Part shown: positions 1-9,241 of the stretch, piece by piece
Layout: the number at the start of each line of letters is the position of its first letter
Position numbering within the stretch: the stretch's first letter is position 1
Virus record (IMG/VR): IMGVR_UViG_3300011226_000028
Length of the DNA: 9,262 nucleotides
Strand: one strand, 5' to 3'
Source of the DNA: a virus
Taxonomy: Duplodnaviria > Heunggongvirae > Uroviricota > Caudoviricetes
The notes under the pieces: generated by a model
What the model was told of the DNA's origin: nothing
The model's database searches: none
Seen by the model: the letters and a program-made list of their open reading frames with translations, nothing else
Program-made: the position numbers and the translations under genes

Positions 1-4
1 TCAT
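1..4 (-). CDS. Start of a leftward gene that runs off the left edge of the window (only the start codon is visible); identity unknown, possibly the next gene of the P4-like left operon
   Basis: Reverse complement of 1-21 reads TGA-AGGAGAACAACACC-ATG-A: stop of the 106-aa ORF, an AGGAG Shine-Dalgarno, about 9 nt spacer, then ATG at 4..2. Confidence 0.3.
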
Positions 5-18
5 GGTGTTGTTCTCCT

Positions 19-339
19 TCAGTGCAGTACCGGCGCTTTTATGTGACGGGCACAGAGTTCATCCATCACAACCAGCCCGAGAAAGGACAGCGACGGCGCG
101 GCCTTCAGGGGGCCGGATTCCATTAAATCTTCCAGCAGGGCACAGGCTATCTGACGCCCTTTTTCCTCACCGTGCTGGCGCAGATAAAAGCCCTCCAGCT
201 CAGCGGCGATGGCCGCCTCCAGTGATTCAAGGGTGAGATGCGGGTAGCGGTGCTGATGTTCGCACACGGTCAGCCAGGCACAGGCGACAGCACGACGGTA
301 AAGGGCTGCGCGTAAGACGGGCGGTAAGGGTGTTTTCAT
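19..339 (-). CDS. Hypothetical protein, 106 aa, in the leftward operon of the P4-like element
   Basis: ORF in the track; ATG at 339 preceded by GGGAGG about 8 nt upstream on the minus strand; GC-rich like neighbouring genes; same strand as adjacent genes. Confidence 0.6.
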
Positions 340-474
340 TTGCTTTCCTCCCTGTGACAGATGACTGCATTCCGTGCCGGTTGCATTAACTGATAAGGCA
401 TATCTGCGTCTCCTGAAGACGTGCGTATCCCTGCGCGAATACGCACATTTAATTTTTCGGGTGTCGTTTTTTAA

Positions 475-930
475 TTACAGATAATTGCGGTAACTGTTAT
501 CCGGGGTGGTTTCCGGGTCAGGCTCCATGCGGGGAATTTCCCGCCATTCCCGCGCCACCGGTGCCGCCCGGCTGGCCGGAACAGTGTCCTGCGGGTAAAT
601 ATCCAGATATTTCTCCCGCCATTTCTGTAATTCCGGGTCTCCGGCCATTTCTTTCAGTACCGCATGCCGGTTTACGGGGCTGCGTTTGAACAGGTCAGGA
701 CGGTCACAGGTAAATTCCCGCAGAAAACGCCCCAGCGGGATGTCTGTGGTGCGCCCGTCAGCGAGGATACGCACAAGGATACTGAATTTACGGCGGTACG
801 GGTTCCAGACAATGTCCGGGCAGCGGTACGGCATTTCCCACGGAATACCGTCTTCCAGAATGCCGACCACGGCCACATCGGGAAAACCGGCAGAACGGTA
901 AATCTCACCGGGCTGGGGAAAATCAAACAT
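475..930 (-). CDS. Hypothetical protein, 151 aa, in the leftward operon
   Basis: ORF in the track; its ATG (930..928) overlaps the stop of the upstream 95-aa ORF in an ATGTTTGA arrangement, suggesting translational coupling. Confidence 0.6.
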   Translation of the reverse strand: MFDFPQPGEIYRSAGFPDVAVVGILEDGIPWEMPYRCPDIVWNPYRRKFSILVRILADGRTTDIPLGRFLREFTCDRPDLFKRSPVNRHAVLKEMAGDPELQKWREKYLDIYPQDTVPASRAAPVAREWREIPRMEPDPETTPDNSYRNYL

Positions 931-1210
931 GCGTCCTGTCTCCCCGGTCTTTCTGCTGGGCGAGAAAATCGCGGCACAGGCCTTTGGCTTTCAGCTCATT
1001 CAGCACAAAATCAATATCTTCATTCAGGTAGCTGAAAATATGCGGAATGTAGAGCTGATGCAGGCCGGAGAGTTCACGGTGAATCAAATCACCCCCAACA
1101 AACTGGGATACGGCGCTGGCGCGGTTGAGCTTATGGTAAGCCTCAATGCTGAGGTGTTCACGGGCGTCATGACGCGCTGAGACGGTCTGAGGGGCTTTTT
1201 TATTACGCAC
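923..1210 (-). CDS. Hypothetical small protein, about 95 aa, probable GTG start
   Basis: Minus-strand frame [40 protein letters not shown]...; GTG at 1210..1208 preceded by GGAGG with a 6-nt spacer; this start overlaps the stop of the upstream 65-aa ORF. Start is inferred, no ATG available in frame. Confidence 0.45.
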
Positions 1211-1400
1211 GGGACACCTCCACCACCGGCAGACGGGCAGCAAGGGAGAGCACATAGTCACGGACAAGGGAACGGCGGGCACTGCGTTCATCACCGGCGA
1301 CGGTGCGAAGCATGCAGATACGGGGATGACGGTCTGCGCGACGGACAGCCGCAAACACAAAGACAAATTCAGGGTGTGAAGGGGTAAGGGTTGTAGCCAT
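1203..1400 (-). CDS. Hypothetical small protein, about 65 aa ([12 protein letters not shown]...VVEVSRA)
   Basis: Internal ATG (1400..1398) of the 211-aa track ORF, preceded by AAGGAGA about 8 nt upstream; stop TAA at 1205..1203 overlaps the GTG of the next gene. The longer 211-aa version is rejected. Confidence 0.35.
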
Positions 1401-1789
1401 AAGGCAGTCTCCTTCGAGTAGCAAATAACTGCTATCGCCGGAGTTCTCACGCTCGATGGCGATAGCCCAGACGGGGGTGAGAATACCGGCCTCGAAGAAT
1501 ACCGGCCAGCCCGGAGGCTGCCCCGCCTGAGCTACCATTGACTCAGTGGCATAACATGCGATTGCGAACAGGATCATACCTGCACGGCAAACCACACGCC
1601 ACACCATAATCTGGCGCTCTGTGGCGTTGATTGCGACACAAAAAAAGACGCATGGCGCGTCATATGTCGCCTTCGAGTTACACGGGTTCTCACGCCCGGC
1701 TGCCGATTTTGCGGCAGCGGAAAAACTATATCCGCAAATGCCGGAAAAAGGCAAGCCAGAAAAAGGGAGTTTTTGCAGAGCGGGCATCA

Positions 1790-2056
1790 TCATGCGTCGT
1801 ACCCCCGTTTGCGTCCGGCAATGCGCCCGGCCATCCATGCGGTGATTTCAGAGTGCAGCCAGGCCACATTTTTACCGCCAAGACTCACCTGCGGCGGAAA
1901 TTCCCCCTTACGGATGAGTTCATAGATGGTCGAGCGTGACAGGCCGCACAGGTGCATCACTTCCGGCAGACGTAAAAAACGCTCCTGCGTGATGTCCGGC
2001 AGCGGCATCAGTGGCGTCACAGGGGCAGGAGACGGGGAAGAAAAAACAGCTTGCAT
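1790..2056 (-). CDS. vis: AlpA/Vis-family small DNA-binding regulator (P4 Vis-like excision/regulatory protein), 88 aa
   Basis: Motif [27 protein letters not shown] is typical of AlpA-family helix-turn-helix prophage regulators; 88 aa as I recall for P4 Vis (orf88); GAGG Shine-Dalgarno about 8 nt upstream; position at the head of the leftward operon, divergent from sid. Confidence 0.7.
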
Positions 2057-2093
2057 CGGGCTACCTCGTTAATGTCCATACAGCACCGGATAA

Positions 2094-2103
2094 NNNNNNN
2101 NNN
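2094..2103. other. Run of 10 N (unknown or masked bases) in the intergenic region upstream of the vis-like gene
   Basis: Literal n characters in the sequence. Confidence 1.
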
Positions 2104-2324
2104 CGCTTTATTTTGTGAATATTTTCAGCAGACGCAACAGGGGGGATTTGTTCCGGTAGCCTTACAATGGCTGTGTGTTTTTTATCCATCTGGACTGGAA
2201 GGGTCTCAAAGGGTTCTGAAGGACCTGGAATTTTTTATAGTGAAATACAAATTGTTTTTTCTTATTTATTTCAGTGAATTAATAAAAATAAAAAGTAATA
2301 AACAGCACAAAAAGTCCATGAGCG

Positions 2325-2429
2325 GGTGAACAGTGGTGAACAGACGGTGAACAGTCATTACTGCGATTGTTCACCCTTTAACTTACTGTATTACTTATCT
2401 TTTTTATTAAGGTGAACAGAGGTGAACAG
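2325..2429. repeat. Iteron cluster resembling the P4 crr/ori-type alpha-protein binding repeats (octamer TGTTCACC)
   Basis: GGTGAACAG (reverse complement CTGTTCACC) occurs five times directly (2325-2333, 2335-2343, 2346-2354, 2411-2419, 2421-2429), plus one inverted copy TGTTCACC at 2368-2375; flanked by very AT-rich DNA (2200-2320, 2380-2460). Confidence 0.6.
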
Positions 2430-2508
2430 TAAAATATAAAAAAAACAAACAGTAAGCCGGTTTTTCCTGCGACCTTTTCCTGGCTTGCCGGTCTGAGGAT
2501 GAGTCTCC

Positions 2509-2526
2509 TGTGTCAGGGCTGGCACA
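2509..2526 (+). promoter_or_regulatory. Putative late promoter activator site (TGT-N12-ACA dyad) of the sid promoter
   Basis: TGT gtcagggctggc ACA at 2509-2526, about 80 bp upstream of the sid ATG, consistent with the P2/P4 late-promoter element bound by Ogr/Delta and centred near -55. Confidence 0.5.
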
Positions 2527-2598
2527 TCTGCAATGCGTCGTGTTGCTGTCCGGTGTACGTCACAATTTTCTCAACCTGAAGTGACGAGGAGCCGGAAA

Positions 2599-3333
2599 AT
2601 GTCTGACAACACCATCCCTGAATATCTGCAACCCGCACTGGCACAACTGGAAAAGGCCAGAGCCGCCCACCTTGAGAACGCCCGCCTGATGGATGAGACC
2701 GTCACGGCCATTGAACGGGCAGAGCAGGAAAAAAATGCGCTGACGCAGGCCGACGGAAACGACGCTGACGACTGGCGCACGGCCTTTCGTGCAGCCGGTG
2801 GTGTCCTGAGCGACGAGCTGAAACAGCGCCACATTGAGCGCGTGGCACGCCGGGAGCTGGTACAGGAATATGACAATCTGGCCGTGGTGCTGAATTTTGA
2901 ACGCGAACGCCTGAAAGGGGCGTGTGACAGCACGGCCACCGCCTACCGGAAGGCACATCATCACCTTCTGAGTCTGTATGCAGAGCATGAGCTGGAACAC
3001 GCCCTGAATGAAACCTGTGAGGCGCTTGTCCGGGCAATGCATCTGAGCATTCTGGTACAGGAAAATCCGCTCGCCAACACCACCGGCCATCAGGGCTACG
3101 TCGCACCGGAAAAGGCTGTCATGCAGCAGGTGAAATCATCGCTGGAACAGAAAATTAAACAGATGCAAATCAGCCTCACCGGCGAGCCGGTTCTCCGGCT
3201 GACCGGACTGTCAGTGGCAACACTCCCGCACATGGATTATGAGGTGACAGGCACACCGGCACAGCGCAAGGTGTGGCAGGACAAAATAGACCAGCAGGGA
3301 GCAGAGCTGAAGGCCAGAGGACTGCTGTCATGA
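2599..3333 (+). CDS. sid: P4 Sid-like external capsid size-determination scaffold protein, 244 aa
   Basis: ATG at 2599 with GAGGA about 9 nt upstream (the track ORF starts earlier at 2533); MSDNTIPEYLQPALAQLEKARAAH...; position immediately upstream of delta and psu in the conserved sid-delta-psu order; stop overlaps the delta start (ATGA). Confidence 0.8.
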   Translation: MSDNTIPEYLQPALAQLEKARAAHLENARLMDETVTAIERAEQEKNALTQADGNDADDWRTAFRAAGGVLSDELKQRHIERVARRELVQEYDNLAVVLNFERERLKGACDSTATAYRKAHHHLLSLYAEHELEHALNETCEALVRAMHLSILVQENPLANTTGHQGYVAPEKAVMQQVKSSLEQKIKQMQISLTGEPVLRLTGLSVATLPHMDYEVTGTPAQRKVWQDKIDQQGAELKARGLLS

Positions 3334-3830
3334 TTTACTGCCCGTCGTGTGGACATGTTGCTCACACCCGTCGCGCACATTTCATGGACGATGGCACCAA
3401 GATAATGATTGCACAGTGCCGGAATATTTATTGCTCTGCGACATTTGAAGCGAGTGAAAGCTTTTTCTCTGACTGTAAAGATTCAGGAATGGAATACATT
3501 TCAGGCAAACAGAGATACCGCGATTCACTGACGTCAGCCTCCGGCAGTATGAAACGCCCGAAAAGAATGCTTGTTACCGGATATTGTTGTCGGAGATGTA
3601 AAGGCCTTGCACTGTCAAGAACATCGCGGCGTCTGTCTCAGGAAGTCACCGAACGTTTTTATGTGTGCACGGATCCGGGCTGTGGTCTGGTGTTTAAAAC
3701 GCTTCAGACCATCAACCGCTTCATTGTCCGCCCGGTCACACCGGACGAACTGGCAGAATGCCTGCATGAAAAACAGGAACTGCCGCCAGTACGGTTAAAA
3801 ACACAATCATATTCGCTGCGTCTGGAATGA
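3330..3830 (+). CDS. delta: P4 Delta-like late transcription activator (two tandem Ogr-type zinc-finger domains), 166 aa
   Basis: Begins MIYCPSCGHVAHTRRAHF... (Ogr-like Cys cluster) and contains a second copy ...YCCRRCKGLALSRTSRRL...YVCTDPGCG; ATG overlaps the sid stop; lies between sid and psu. Confidence 0.8.
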   Translation: MIYCPSCGHVAHTRRAHFMDDGTKIMIAQCRNIYCSATFEASESFFSDCKDSGMEYISGKQRYRDSLTSASGSMKRPKRMLVTGYCCRRCKGLALSRTSRRLSQEVTERFYVCTDPGCGLVFKTLQTINRFIVRPVTPDELAECLHEKQELPPVRLKTQSYSLRLE

Positions 3831-3903
3831 GGGCTGCCGGTTAACACCGGCCGTCGCCGCACACCGTATTTTTATTCTTCAGCATGATGAGAAAGAGATA
3901 ACG

Positions 3904-4139
3904 ATGGAAAGCACAGCCTTACAGCAGGCCTTTGACACCTGTCAGAATAACAAAGCAGCATGGCTGCAACGCAAAAATGAGCTGGCAGCGGCCGAACAGG
4001 AATACCTGCGGCTTCTGTCAGGAGAAGGCAGAAACGTCAGTCGCCTGGACGAATTACGCAATATTATCGAAGTCAGAAAATGGCAGGTGAATCAGGCCGC
4101 CAGTCGTTATATTCGTTCGCATGAAGCCGTTCAGCACAT
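3904..4139 (+). pseudogene. psu: psu (P4 polarity suppression / capsid decoration, Rho inhibitor), 5' fragment interrupted by IS3
   Basis: MESTALQQAFDTCQNNKAAWLQRKNELAAAEQEY...HEAVQHI then runs directly into the IS3 terminal inverted repeat at 4140. Confidence 0.8.
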
Positions 4140-4169
4140 TGATCCTACCCACGTAATATGGACACAGGC

Positions 4170-5036
4170 CTAAGCGAGGTTCTGGTTTTCAAATTGTTCC
4201 GGACTGAGGCCGCCACACCAACTGTGCCGCCGCCACCGATTGTAATCACATTCGATATAATTAAACACCGTTGCCCGCATTATTTCCCGGCTGATAAAGT
4301 GTTCTCCATGGATACATTCCACTTTCAGCGAATGAAAGAAGCTTTCCACGCAGGCATTATCGTAGCAGCAACCTTTTGCGCTCATACTTCCACGCAGATT
4401 ATGCCGCTTCAGTTGCGCCTGATAATCTGCTGAACAGTACTGGCCTCCACGGTCCGTGTGAACGATAACGTTCCGGGGCCTCTTACGCCGCCACAGCGCC
4501 ATCTGCAGGGCATCGCAGGCCAGTTGCGCCGTCATGCGTGGCGACATTGACCAGCCAATAACGGCACGTGACCACAGGTCAATGACCACTGCCAGATACA
4601 GCCAGCCTTCATCTGTACGTAAGTACGTGATGTCTCCTGCCCACTTCTGGTTCGGGCCACTGGCGTAAAAATCCTGCTCCAACAGATTTTCTGACACAGG
4701 CAGGCCGTGTGCGCGGTAGCTGACCGGGCTGAACTTCCGGGAGGCCTTTGCCCTCAGTCCCTGACGGCGCAGGCTTGCCGCCACGGTTTTTACGTTAAAG
4801 GGGTAACCCTGAGCACGCAGTTCATCCGTCAGGCGTGGGGCACCGTAACGCTGTTTTGACCGGGTAAAAGCCGCGAGGACAACGCTGTCGCAGTGTTGGC
4901 GGAACTGCTGACGCGTGCTTATCCTTGTCCGCCGCTGACACCACGTATACCAGCCGCTGCGGGCCACCCGGAGCACGCGGCACATTGCTTTGATGCTGAA
5001 CTCAGCCTGATGTTTTTCAATAAAGACATACTTCAT
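4170..5036 (-). CDS. insF: IS3 OrfB (DDE transposase catalytic component; normally made as an OrfAB fusion by -1 frameshifting)
   Basis: 288-aa ORF with DDE-type motifs ([27 protein letters not shown]); overlaps orfA in the -1 frame as in the IS3 family. Confidence 0.85.
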
Positions 5037-5341
5037 TTCAGGCGCTTCGCGAAGTATGTCGCGGCCTTTTGGAGGATAGCCAGCTCTTCATCCCGTTCTG
5101 CCAGCTGGCGTTTGAGACGTGCAATCTCGGTAGACATCTCCAGTTCACGTTCAGAAGACGTCTGCTGATTTTGCTGTTTACTGCGCCAGTTGTAGAGCTG
5201 TGATTCATACAGGCTGAGTTCACGGGCTGCGGCAGTAACACCGATGCGTTCAGCAAGCTTCAGGGCTTCACTGCGAAATTCAGGCGAATGCTGTTTACGG
5301 GGTTTTTTACTGGTTGATACTGTTTTTGTCATGTGAGTCAC
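5033..5341 (-). CDS. insE: IS3 OrfA (helix-turn-helix transposase N-terminal component)
   Basis: [52 protein letters not shown]... matches IS3 OrfA as I recall it; leucine-zipper-like C-terminus; stop overlaps the orfB ATG (ATGA). Confidence 0.85.
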
Positions 5342-5396
5342 CTCTGACTGAGAGTTTACTCACTTAGCCGCGTGTCCACTATTGCTGGGTAAGATC

Positions 5397-5737
5397 ACAT
5401 CAGCATCCGCGACCGGCTGAATGATTTTATGCAGCAGCACGGCACAGTACTGGCGGCCGCACTGGCACCGGAGCTGATGGGCTACAGTGAGCTGACGGCC
5501 ATTGCCCGAAACTGTGCCATACAGCGTGCCACAGATGCCCTGCGTGAAGCCCTCCTGTCCTGGCTTGCGAAGGGGGAAAAAATTAATTATTCCGCACAGG
5601 ATAGCGACATTTTAACGACCATCGGATTCAGGCCTGACGCGGCTTCGGTGGATGACAGCCGTGAAAAATTCACCCCTGCGCAGAACATGATTTTTTCGCG
5701 TAAAAGTGCGCAACTGGCATCACGTCAGTCTGTGTAA
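5397..5737 (+). pseudogene. psu: psu, 3' fragment downstream of the IS3 insertion
   Basis: In-frame translation from about 5402 reads SIRDRLNDFMQQHGTVLAAALAPELMGYSELTAIARN...ASRQSV; the track ORF 5429..5737 is its ATG-initiated portion. Confidence 0.75.
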
Positions 5738-5772
5738 AATTCCCCGAAAATCCGCCTGTTTTTACTGAAAAA

Positions 5773-5799
5773 AGCCATGCATCGATAAGGTGCATGGCT
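5773..5799 (+). terminator. Putative intrinsic (possibly bidirectional) terminator hairpin downstream of psu
   Basis: Perfect 9-bp stem AGCCATGCA / TGCATGGCT with a 9-nt loop, preceded by an A run and followed by TT...GTTTT. Confidence 0.4.
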
Positions 5800-5901
5800 T
5801 TGCATGCGTTTTCCTGCCTCATTTTCTGCAGACCGCGCCATTCCCGGCGCGGCCTGAGCGTGTCAGTGCAACTGCATTAAAACCGCCCCACAAAGCGGGC
5901 G

Positions 5902-6016: not shown

Positions 6017-7779
6017 TTATTGCGATGCGTCTTCTTTTAAAGCGATGCTTTGTTCTAAAGCTTCTTTTATGCGTTTAACGCATTCTGTTAGTTCAATTAT
6101 GGCTCCGCGTCGAAAAGAACTGTTAATTTTTTTATGATGAGCGTTTATGGCTGAATGTAGCTTCTTAAGGTATGGTAGTTCAGCAGAAAGGTAGTCCGCA
6201 AGATTTGAGAAGTTATAGAGTGATGATAGATGGTTTGAAAACAACTGAATATCGCGAATGGACCAAGTGTTTTTTATTCCATGTATGATTAGGTTTACAT
6301 CTAATGTTTCAAGTGGATTAAATTTGAATTTTGATTGATAAATATCCATATCAATAGCACTCCAACCGTTAACATTCATTTTTTCTTTCAATTCTTTTAT
6401 TTTCTCCTCCTTTATTATATCGCAATATTTATCAAGGAAGTAATTATGAAGTTCATTTCCTTCTCTCCTTAATATATGTGGTGGAATATTATCAATGTTG
6501 GGATTTGATTCTAGGAAATATTCTTTTATTTCTTCATTACTAAAGCTACGTTTGTTTTTTTCAATGGTTTTGTTGGTTAACCCTCTTATGCGAGGGATGT
6601 ATTTTGATTTTGAGAGTCTAATATAGTTGTTTGTAGCGATTAGCCAAGTAGATAGTGTCGGTGATGAAGTTTTTAGTATTACTTTTTTAATTTCATCCAA
6701 ATAATCATTTTCAGGTATATTATACCATTCCGGTTGTTTTAATGTGGCATAATCACTTTTTTTTAAAGGTTCTTGTGAATTGAATATGTATGGAATTATA
6801 TCCTTTTGAGATATCTCATTAAAACAATATGGAACCATTAAGTTGTTATAAGTCATATGAGCAGTGATATTTAAAAGGTTACTCTCTTCTTCGCTTATTT
6901 TATCTGGATCATTCTCAGATGAAGTCGTAAGTGTTTTGAAAGAAGATGTGATATAATTATGATGAAAATCATTCTCTTGATATGAAAATTTCTCTTTTAG
7001 TATTATATGAGCACAAAGTGAAGTGACTAGGTTTTTGATGTCTATATCAGAGATTTTTTGCTCAGGTTCTTGTTTTTCAAAAAGAGGTGTCAATTTTGAA
7101 ATTACTCTATTAATAATTCGTAGGTTTGTTTCTTCGAACCCAATAATAACCTGAGTGATTAAATATTTATGTCTCTCTTCTAATGGAGCCAGTTTTTGCT
7201 CTAATATATCGGTAAGGTTATTAATAGAGAAATATATTTCGTCGCTTACAACTTTTTCTTTATGACTTAATACCTCACTACTCTGCTTTGAAAAGTTACC
7301 CACTAAAATAAAGTCTAACCGATTATCATTTTGATAACTTTGTAGGCAAAAGGTTGCTATTTCATCTCTCAAAGATTGAGGGATTCTTTCTAGATCATCA
7401 ATGACAAAAACNNNNNNNNNNNNNNNNNNNNNNNNNNNNNNGCACCTGAAATGGTAGATATAATTTGTTCTGTCAACTTTCCAGTGCTTTCGTCTTGGGT
7501 TAATGCTGATGCAGCGCTTGAGGTTAAATCCCCAAGTTTTTTTATCTCTGAAGGGGTGTTTAGATACGTTATGCTTAGCATTCTATCTTTAAAATCTTGT
7601 AAACTGTTTAACCCAAGAACAGACAAATAAAAATGACTCGTATCTGAATAAAGTGTTCTAAATTCAGTTCGAAGGAAATATGTCTTACCTACACCCCATT
7701 CCCCATTTATTAATATCAGACCATCACGTTTCTCTTTCAATATACGAATCAATATAGATACTATAGTACCTTTGGTCAT
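6017..7779 (-). CDS. KAP-family P-loop NTPase, about 587 codons, interrupted by a 30-nt N run; candidate anti-phage defence cargo gene
   Basis: Walker A in the KAP-characteristic form GEWGVGKT (N-terminal ORF 7390..7779) and Walker B-like VFVIDDLER just downstream of the gap (extension of ORF 6017..7372); AGGAG with a 5-nt spacer before the ATG at 7779; strongly AT-rich (about 25% GC in a spot count) compared with flanking genes. Confidence 0.7.
7412..7441. other. Run of 30 N (unknown or masked bases) inside the KAP NTPase gene
   Basis: Literal n characters; the reading frames on the two sides differ by one position, so the true gap length is probably not 30 nt. Confidence 1.
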
Positions 7780-7808: not shown

Positions 7809-8984
7809 TTATTTTATTTTTGGATAAAGTAAGTCACTATACCACTGCATCATATGTAATCTTTTCTCTAAATATTGAGCATGATTATAAGTACCTCTTA
7901 TACTGTTTTTATCAACATGTGCTAATTGCATCTCAATCCATGCACTATCAAATCCATGTTCATGTAAGATTGTCGATAATGAATGTCTAAAACCGTGACC
8001 TGTAGCACGTCCTTTGTAACCAAGTAACTCAATTACTTGAGATACGCTTTCTTTTGAAATTGGTTTGCTACGATTGTTCCTTCCAATAAATATGTAGGGG
8101 TAATGGCCGGTAATAGGCTTGAGTTGTTCGAAAAGGGCAATTACCTGAGTAGATAAAGGAACAATGTGTGGCCTACGCATTTTCATCCTTTCTGCAGGTA
8201 TTTCCCATATGCCTTTCTCAAGATCAACCTCATTCCAAGTAGCCAAACGCATTTCCTGCGTTCTAACGCCGGTCAGCATAACTATCTTAGTAGCATTTTT
8301 AGTAATGATACTTCCGGTATACGCTTCCAAATCCTGAATGAAATGAGGTAGCTCTTCAGCGGATAAAAAAGGATGATGTTTTTGCTTAGGAACAGCCAGA
8401 GCGATGGCTAAATCAGGCGCAGGATTGTATTCAGCACGGCCAGTTATGATCGCATAGCGGTAGACTTCACCACATCTTTGCCGCACTTTTCTGGTCTTCT
8501 CTAATGCCCCACGCTTTTCTATTCTTCGCAATACTTCGAGCAGTTCTAATGGTTTAATTTCACTGATAGGGCGTTTACCAATGAAAGGGAATACATCTTG
8601 CTCAAAAGTCTTCATAATTTCTTCTCGATAGGCCACCGTCCAGCGGTCAGCTTTGTTGGTATGCCATTCTCGACATATTGCTTCGAAAGAATTTTCTGTT
8701 GATAGCTTTTGAGCGAGTCTTAAAGCTTTGCGTTCCTCTACTGGGTCAATGCCATTAGCAACCTGCTTACGGGCGATGTCACGCTTCTCACGTGCTTCTG
8801 CGAGGCTTACTAAATCATAGCTGCCAAATGACATTAACCGCGCTTTCCCAGCAAATCTGAAACGGAAACGCCAGCCTTTCGTGCCATCTGGATTGATAAG
8901 CAACGACAGACCTTGTCCATCGTTCAATGTGTATGGCTTGTCTTGTGGTTTTGCACGTTTGATCTGTGTATCGGTTAGAGCCAT
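7809..8984 (-). CDS. int: P4-type tyrosine integrase (phage integrase family), 391 aa
   Basis: N-terminus MALTDTQIKRAKPQDKPYTLNDGQGLSLLINPDG... typical of P4-like integrases; C-terminal catalytic region GHGFRHSLSTILHE...GTYNHAQY (R, H-x-x-R, Y); adjacent to the 3' end of a tRNA gene. Confidence 0.9.
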   Translation of the reverse strand: MALTDTQIKRAKPQDKPYTLNDGQGLSLLINPDGTKGWRFRFRFAGKARLMSFGSYDLVSLAEAREKRDIARKQVANGIDPVEERKALRLAQKLSTENSFEAICREWHTNKADRWTVAYREEIMKTFEQDVFPFIGKRPISEIKPLELLEVLRRIEKRGALEKTRKVRQRCGEVYRYAIITGRAEYNPAPDLAIALAVPKQKHHPFLSAEELPHFIQDLEAYTGSIITKNATKIVMLTGVRTQEMRLATWNEVDLEKGIWEIPAERMKMRRPHIVPLSTQVIALFEQLKPITGHYPYIFIGRNNRSKPISKESVSQVIELLGYKGRATGHGFRHSLSTILHEHGFDSAWIEMQLAHVDKNSIRGTYNHAQYLEKRLHMMQWYSDLLYPKIK

Positions 8985-9036: not shown

Positions 9037-9146
9037 TTTTCGCGGATTCAGGGAGATGATCTCGGACTATTACGGACAAGCTGATTATTCATCGCATTGA
9101 ATATAAATGATTTTATGGAGTGTCTCGGAACTGGCTGGATGAGGTT

Positions 9147-9241
9147 TGGCGGAAGATCACAGGAGTCGAACCTGCCCGGGACCGCTGGCGGCCCCAACTG
9201 GATTTGAAGTCCAGCCGCCTCACCGGAGACGACGATCTTCC
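9147..9241 (-). tRNA. selC: tRNA-Sec (selenocysteine tRNA, selC), 95 nt, serving as the integration site
   Basis: Reverse complement reads GGAAGATCGTCGTCTCCGGTGAGGCGGCTGGACTTCAAATCCAGTTGGGGCCGCCAGCGGTCCCGGGCAGGTTCGACTCCTGTGATCTTCCGCCA, matching the E. coli selC tRNA as I recall it, including the long variable arm and 3' CCA; the integrase gene lies beyond its 3' end. Confidence 0.9.

Follow-up and report, generated by a model that had tools for sequence, protein, structure and literature searches.

The window, by which we mean the whole 9,262-bp stretch of DNA that was analysed, is recognizable from its sequence as most of a P4-type prophage of ~12 kb in selC. Window positions 1-4139 correspond to positions 6966-11123 of P4 (X51522) with 96.4% identity, and the match to P4 resumes at 5396-5901 with 98.2% identity. 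Read from the left, the window carries cnr, ORF151, epsilon, the immunity region, vis, an iteron array, sid, delta, psu interrupted by an IS3-family element, cos, cargo, int and selC, in this order. The traits of P4-like satellites are all present, including alpha, cnr, epsilon/ash, alpA/vis, sid, delta, psu, int, a cos site and integration in a tRNA gene, if alpha is counted from contigs identical to window 1-4249 and psu is counted in its IS3-interrupted form.

The right end of the element is marked by a tRNA-Sec gene (Rfam; 9151-9241, minus strand) and by an integrase gene (7809-8984) with a full-length open reading frame that encodes arm-binding, central and catalytic domains. The 23-bp sequence TTTGGCGGAAGATCACAGGAGTC is directly repeated: one copy is at 9145-9167, the 3' end of selC, and the other is at positions 4554-4576 of contig L003, 2.84 kb to the left of the window start. 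Intact at either end of the element, these att repeats bound a prophage of ~12.0 kb, the IS3 copy included, at selC. This part of the element differs from P4, which has an Int of 440 aa and an attachment site that we take to be leuX, whereas the element in the window has a 391-aa integrase unlike that of P4, different cargo and the selC site.

The IS3-family insertion sequence occupies 4140-5395 (orfA, 5033-5341, and orfB, 4170-5036, both on the minus strand) and splits psu into fragments at 3904-4173 and 5429-5737; draft assemblies L003 and L004 of the same element break at this insertion. Between cos and int, at the position of the P4 gop-beta-cII genes, lies a cargo gene (6017-7779, minus strand) for a 588-aa P-loop NTPase (Pfam AAA_22/KAP_NTPase) that matches the PADLOC candidate defence family PDC-S49 (E = 1e-14). 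This gene looks split in the window only because of a run of N at 7412-7441. Neither this run nor a second one, at 2094-2103, preserves length; the latter lies just upstream of vis and stands for 20 nt, GTCCGTCCGGCTTCGGGTAG, in L003 and P4, which shifts coordinates by 10 relative to those of related elements.

The iteron array and its flanks

The iteron array has vis (ORF88; 1790-2056, minus strand) as its left neighbour and sid (2599-3333, plus strand) as its right neighbour. The vis product is an AlpA-type HTH regulator that is identical to P4 ORF88 at 86 of 88 residues, and the identical protein of L003 matches Pfam Phage_AlpA; sid, for capsid size determination, was assigned from its translation and from the P4 sid annotation. 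Within the 540-bp intergenic region that separates these genes, an exact search of the 9,262-bp window located six copies of the octamer TGTTCACC, all of them in 2325-2428 (104 bp). The number expected by chance is 0.20 (sd 0.46), and six copies were reached in none of 200 dinucleotide shuffles. The same exact search returned no further copy, and hence no second cluster, elsewhere in the window.

Five of the six octamers lie on the minus strand and read GGTGAACA on the plus strand, at 2325, 2335, 2346, 2411 and 2421, while the lone plus-strand copy is at 2368, which gives start-to-start spacings of 10, 11, 22, 43 and 10 bp. Iterons 1-3 (2325-2353), which TRF reports as three copies with a period of 10, read GGTGAACAG on the plus strand at each of their starts; iteron 4 (2368-2375, plus strand) is an exact, inverted copy; and iterons 5-6 (2411-2428, minus strand) complete the array. 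Repeat-finding tools recovered these repeat families too. The exact search bears out the layout described in an earlier note on this DNA, namely five direct copies and one inverted copy, as 3 + inverted + 2, in about 105 bp. The 9-mer that the note regarded as common to all copies holds for the five direct ones, which share GGTGAACAG, but the inverted copy keeps only the 8-mer (TTGTTCACC, not CTGTTCACC).

The array is also bracketed by very AT-rich DNA, as had been proposed, since GC content falls to 18.9% in the left flank (2231-2320), to 17.1% in the spacer between iteron 4 and iterons 5-6 (2376-2410) and to 14.8% in the right flank (2429-2455), compared to 47.5% for the window. The left flank falls within the annotated rep_origin of P4 and carries ~20 substitutions relative to P4, while the spacer, CCTTTAACTTACTGTATTACTTATCTTTTTTATTAA, is identical to that of P4. 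The right flank is an A-rich sequence, TAAAATATAAAAAAAACAAACAGTAAG, in which the block GTAAAAAAACAAAC is conserved across genera, and the spacer sequence TTACTGTATTACTTATCTTTTT is conserved across genera as much as the iterons are. In addition, a 22-nt inverted repeat (2279-2300 and 2389-2410, 86% complementary) brackets iterons 1-4 and pairs the left flank with the spacer.

One TGT-N12-ACA dyad lies on each side of the array. The first, upstream of the leftward late promoter PLL (2149-2166, minus strand), matches P4 except in its spacer and, by the P2/P4 consensus, is a putative Delta/Ogr activator site. The second, upstream of the rightward late promoter Psid (2509-2526, plus strand), is identical to P4 and presumably has the activator role established for P2 and P4. 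A scan of the vis-sid region for sigma-70 promoters returned no match, a result that fits activator-dependent late promoters and is otherwise uninformative.

Assignment of the array to the P4 origin

In the P4 GenBank record, an 'origin of DNA replication' (<9086-9809) separates ORF88 (vis) from sid, and six 'ori type 1 repeats' are annotated, at 9310, 9320 and 9331 (minus strand), 9353 (plus strand), and 9396 and 9406 (minus strand). When the window was aligned to this record, its iterons fell on these repeats with a constant offset of 6985 and no indels, across P4 9310-9413. Iterons 1-3 are colinear with the repeats at 9310, 9320 and 9331, iteron 4 is the repeat at 9353-9360, and iterons 5-6 are those at 9396 and 9406. 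Window 2324-2438 is 100% identical to P4. A sensitive search with 2150-2600 against 50,697 phage records retrieved P4 records only, at 90.5% identity over 451 nt and under origin annotations. The array also has the position that it has in P4, between vis/PLL and Psid/sid, and the segment as a whole shares with P4 ori (X51522 9086-9809) the order, orientation and spacing of the octamers, the flanking vis and sid genes and the late-promoter dyads. Taken together, these comparisons indicate that the array is very probably the replication origin (ori, alias ori1 or oriI) of the ~12-kb P4-type satellite prophage at selC.

In P4, the octamer occurs both at ori and at crr, and the array could in principle represent a crr-like element, that is, a second, distal cis site rather than the origin. 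Indeed, the motif alone cannot separate the two, because both ori and crr are built from TGTTCACC. The layout of P4 crr is distinct, however, as this locus (X51522 4291-4590) consists of two 120-bp direct repeats located downstream of alpha and beside attP, each of which contains five annotated type 1 repeats arranged as two direct, two inverted and one direct. Thus crr shares the octamer with ori and is required with it in cis, but it is a duplicated 120-bp unit next to att in which several copies are degenerate. The array in the window has a 3+1+2 layout, a vis-sid site and identity to P4 ori, and a repeat search of 2100-2500 detected no 120-bp duplication; moreover, the element has a genuine crr at another location (L003 4739-5003). 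On this evidence, we give the crr reading almost no credence. A P4 engineering preprint (bioRxiv 10.64898/2026.03.30.715334) also maps crr to the border of the gop-int region, which is non-essential.

The earlier note had called the array crr-like, and this label must be withdrawn given its vis-sid position and its alignment to the P4 ori annotation. The other parts of that proposal stand: the likeness to binding sites of the P4 alpha protein is explained by the octamers being P4 'type 1' repeats, the alignment to P4 crr and ori1 that it recommended gave 100% identity to the ori core, and the cis replication element that it considered preserved is, in its core, base for base the annotated origin of P4.

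An alternative function for the array can be drawn from its surroundings. The iterons occupy an intergenic region between two TGT-N12-ACA dyads, in which a sigma-70-like promoter was not detected, and they might therefore serve mainly in transcriptional control of the divergent PLL and Psid promoters by alpha, rather than as a start site for replication. We consider this very improbable, since the homologous P4 segment is annotated as a replication origin and crr carries the same octamers with no promoter involved. The P4 origin was mapped experimentally, and a regulatory side effect of the iterons would add to their function as an origin.

The replication origin, as we read the array, is already known and ordinary, as it is the one that is standard throughout the P4-like family, and the origin of P4 has been characterised since the 1980s. 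The main finding therefore carries little weight alone; its value lies in the corrected label (ori, not crr) and in a replication module that looks complete. More broadly, iteron-type plasmid and phage origins have an element-encoded initiator, an AT-rich unwinding region and a second iteron cluster that acts at a distance. P1 oriR, pSC101 and R6K gamma, for example, likewise have initiator-binding direct repeats beside AT-rich DNA, along with a distant second cluster. In P4, the initiator is itself a helicase and primase, and DnaA, DnaB and DnaG are not known to be needed. P4 crr is required for firing and is not merely a site of copy-number 'handcuffing' as in iteron plasmids.

The replication module and its conservation

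The left edge of the window cuts the alpha primase-helicase gene at its start, and the first four bases of this gene (ATGA) occupy positions 1-4 on the minus strand, with the window beginning 1 nt past the alpha ATG. The reverse strand of window 1-60 ends with ...CACCATGA, exactly where the alpha open reading frame of L003 starts; therefore, only four bases of alpha lie inside the window. The gene immediately to its right, cnr (ORF106; 19-339, minus strand), is intact, homologous to P4 ORF106 and a full-length match to Pfam DUF5375 (E = 7e-63). We take its product, from the P4 literature, to be a negative regulator of alpha-dependent replication.

Looking up exact matches to the Sid protein of the window yielded 18 contigs. 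Leaving aside the N mask, three of these (L003, L004 and L005) show no difference from window 1-4249; the ends of two of the three fall within the IS3 copy. The alpha protein that these three contigs encode has 777 aa, with Zn-ribbon primase, Toprim and D5_N/Pox_D5 helicase domains, and is identical to P4 alpha at 774 of 776 positions. Its residues 671-770 match PDB 1KA8 (E = 1e-63), which we take to be the crystallised P4 origin-binding domain. In L003, crr is found downstream of alpha, where its iterons (4739-5003) lie ~4.7 kb from those of ori (9727-9830) and align with both 120-bp repeats of P4 crr; this places crr ~2.4-2.65 kb to the left of the window start. Alpha and crr are arranged in the same way in L002, the closest relative among complete E. 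coli genomes. Consequently, the second iteron cluster and the alpha gene that the earlier note had suggested looking for in the rest of the element are both found to the left of the window edge in identical contigs. We infer from the identical 4.25 kb shared with these contigs that the source genome carries alpha and crr, and the replication module of ori, alpha, cnr and crr looks complete.

Alpha is described as an essential primase/helicase in a passage of PMC8628076 that cites Ziegelin 1993. If the element behaves as set out for P4 in the P4 literature, then after derepression alpha would use its C-terminal winged-helix domain to bind the TGTTCACC iterons of ori and of crr, bridge the two sites and open the neighbouring AT-rich DNA. 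Acting as its own helicase and primase, it would then start theta replication in both directions, with host DNA polymerase III and with crr in cis, while Cnr would restrain it. The candidate region for duplex opening is 2231-2320 (about 13-20% GC), the conserved AT-rich spacer, or both. Binding of the octamers by alpha and bridging of ori and crr are part of general knowledge on P4.

Comparative genomics was used to ask how widely this region is distributed. It is found in 1,066 of 5,426 complete E. coli genomes (~1/5), always in the chromosome, and more than 80% of the region is present in 971 of them. A scan of one genome per species for the triple-iteron pattern identified 25 P4-like origins in Enterobacter, Klebsiella, Citrobacter, Kluyvera, Raoultella, Phytobacter, Buttiauxella, Tatumella, Edwardsiella, Cedecea and other genera, plus one unrelated array from Acidobacteria. 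When 29 origins from more than 12 genera, Escherichia included, were aligned, the 3 + inverted + 2 layout, the spacings, the spacer and the flanks were conserved. The first three iterons were the search pattern and are invariant in this alignment by construction, but the copies outside the pattern are informative: the inverted copy matches the majority of the 29 sequences in 27 of them, and copies 5 and 6 are strongly conserved, with copy 6 being GTGAATAG in most other lineages. Three more divergent P4-like elements of E. coli, at ssrA and tRNA-Thr, have the same layout between vis and sid; among divergent E. coli elements, L010 shows partial and L011 clear degeneration of the iterons. The ori core is invariant over hundreds of E. 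coli genomes, and this invariance, together with its conservation across genera, argues for purifying selection.

The array from the Acidobacteria MAG (JACQZR010000147.1; L012:6600-6900) contains about ten copies of GTGAACAG and two inverted ones, and its flanks do not resemble those of P4. The octamer may be shared by coincidence, with this unrelated array being an iteron or operator cluster in its own right, and L012 was left out of the origin comparison.

The conservation of the origin also bears on whether the element could be a decaying, immobile prophage remnant, in which an intact-looking but unused origin is conserved through recent acquisition only. The interruption of psu by the IS3-family element (4140-5395) points in this direction, and many P4-like elements of E. 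coli are cryptic (PMC8628076). Nevertheless, alpha (full length and 99% identical to that of P4), cnr, crr and ori are all intact in the identical contigs, both att repeats are intact, the integrase is full length with three domains, and both the invariance of the ori core and its conservation across genera speak against an unused origin. Psu is a capsid-decoration and anti-termination protein, and it is not known to be required for replication. We regard such a remnant as unlikely, and less so than either of the other two readings discussed above, although, with the IS3 copy in psu, some decay of the element as a satellite may have set in despite an intact ori.

Immunity region and the repeat slot left of the origin

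Differences between the window and P4 are concentrated at 1400-1700 and at 2150-2320, while the ori core has none. The first of these regions contains the P4 immunity RNA (Rfam, C4 family; 1455-1542, minus strand) and its targets (1641-1731), and was analysed by comparing window 1455-1731 (minus strand) to P4 L001:8420-8700. Between the immunity RNA and its targets, the window differs from P4 by a 9-bp deletion and by clustered substitutions. In the alignment, the seqA and seqC targets change from ...ATTCACAGG... in P4 to ...ACTCGAAGG... in the window, and the segment of the CI (C4) RNA changes from ...CCTGTGAAG... to ...TCTTCGAGG...; since the targets and the RNA are changed on both sides, complementarity is kept. 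This pattern suggests that the element is a heteroimmune variant of P4. Only this co-varied immunity RNA and the polymorphism described below exceed the textbook picture of a P4-like satellite, and most of both falls outside the region that the earlier note had singled out.

The second region of divergence includes a slot to the left of the iterons where P4 has three decamers annotated as 'ori type 2 repeats' (9176-9205). These are absent from the window and are replaced by a different array at 2191-2230 (plus strand), made up of four 10-bp tandem units, GGACTGGAAG, GGTCTCAAAG, GGTTCTGAAG and GACCTGGAAT. If the type 2 repeats, which are annotated within ori and are not conserved, were needed for firing, the origin in the window would differ in function from that of P4. 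However, the three type 2 repeats of P4 coincide exactly with three tandem P2 cox boxes, for which the consensus is TTAAA(G/C)NC(A/C) (PMC3936717). P2 Cox reportedly binds upstream of PLL and activates this promoter (PMC3936717). Because the type 2 repeats look like P2 Cox boxes that serve PLL, their absence does not bear on the identity of the origin. A scan with the consensus detected no P2 cox box in the slot of the window, which therefore differs in this respect from the slot of P4.

The slot was compared among P4-like elements of E. coli in which the DNA around it is near-identical (window 2186-2232, P4 L001:9171-9217, L002:8196-8242 and L128-L133), and was found to be a segment of ~45 bp with at least three discrete, sharp-bordered alleles. 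Allele A is present in P4 and in L130-L132, allele B in the window and in an O157:H7 strain (L133), and allele C in L002, L128 and L129. An ungapped 40-nt comparison against 163 helper regions gave, as the best helper match of allele A, the Pe-Pc array of P2 (28/40; reached in 0/300 shuffles). The best match of allele B was the Pe-Pc array of a Wphi-family helper, L086 (25/40; 2/300 shuffles), and allele C matched the same L086 array best (27/40; 0/300 shuffles). Alleles B and C both align in register with this operator-region array, ~36-76 nt upstream of the cox gene of L086. It has been reported that the Cox protein of Wphi neither binds cox boxes nor activates P4 (PMC5009727).

Other searches with allele B gave less. 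Gapped local alignment against 65 helper cox-upstream regions reached a score of 22, which is not significant, as 25 of 100 shuffles reached it as well; comparison to the ev239-, T5282H- and Chuche-type Cox families yielded no convincing match; and BLAST of the slot against the phage collection returned only chance 18-19-mers. The best match obtained with these Cox families, one exact 12-mer located ~135-147 nt upstream of cox, was set aside as a chance match, given that 5 of 60 shuffles reach it.

The proteins of the satellite itself were also considered as ligands of the slot. Both Vis (identical to that of P4 at 86 of 88 residues) and alpha (774 of 776) are unlikely to bind it, as the slot is wholly different from that of P4; therefore, the satellite's own DNA-binding proteins do not explain the slot swap. 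P2 Cox and 186 Apl are recombination-directionality factors of helper phages that also regulate transcription. Like the operator arrays of these two proteins, the slot consists of 3-6 direct repeats placed one helical turn apart. From these comparisons, the most likely role of 2191-2230 is not that of an alpha site but that of an operator array for activation of PLL by a Cox-type protein of the helper.

The existence of discrete alleles that resemble the operators of different helpers suggests that the slot mimics the operators of a specific helper, and the match of the window allele to the Wphi family is moderately supported. A broader proposal is that 2191-2230 is a swappable mimic of Cox/Apl operators that decides which helper can act on PLL, alpha and the firing of the origin, and that the window holds a non-P2, Wphi-like allele in a heteroimmune P4 that answers to another helper, on a replication backbone that is otherwise identical to P4. 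We advance this proposal tentatively, as one that is possible but somewhat short of an even chance. A description of the slot cassette polymorphism was not found in the searchable literature, and the polymorphism may be new. If the slot is indeed an exchangeable, helper-specific operator mimic, it would provide a sequence-readable marker of the helper phage of each P4-like satellite; such a reading, if true, would bear on satellite-helper specificity and on the engineering of P4-based delivery particles.

In other lineages and genera (L009:6890-6950, L010:6865-6925, L013, L022-L024 and L035), the slot contains four to six repeats of the TGGCAAAC type, placed ~10-11 bp apart. In six of these loci (L010, L013, L022-L024 and L035), the repeats match annotated Apl operators of phage 186, either in the pR-pL region (20/22) or at attP (24/27 and 17/18), which suggests that these satellites are tuned to 186-like helpers.
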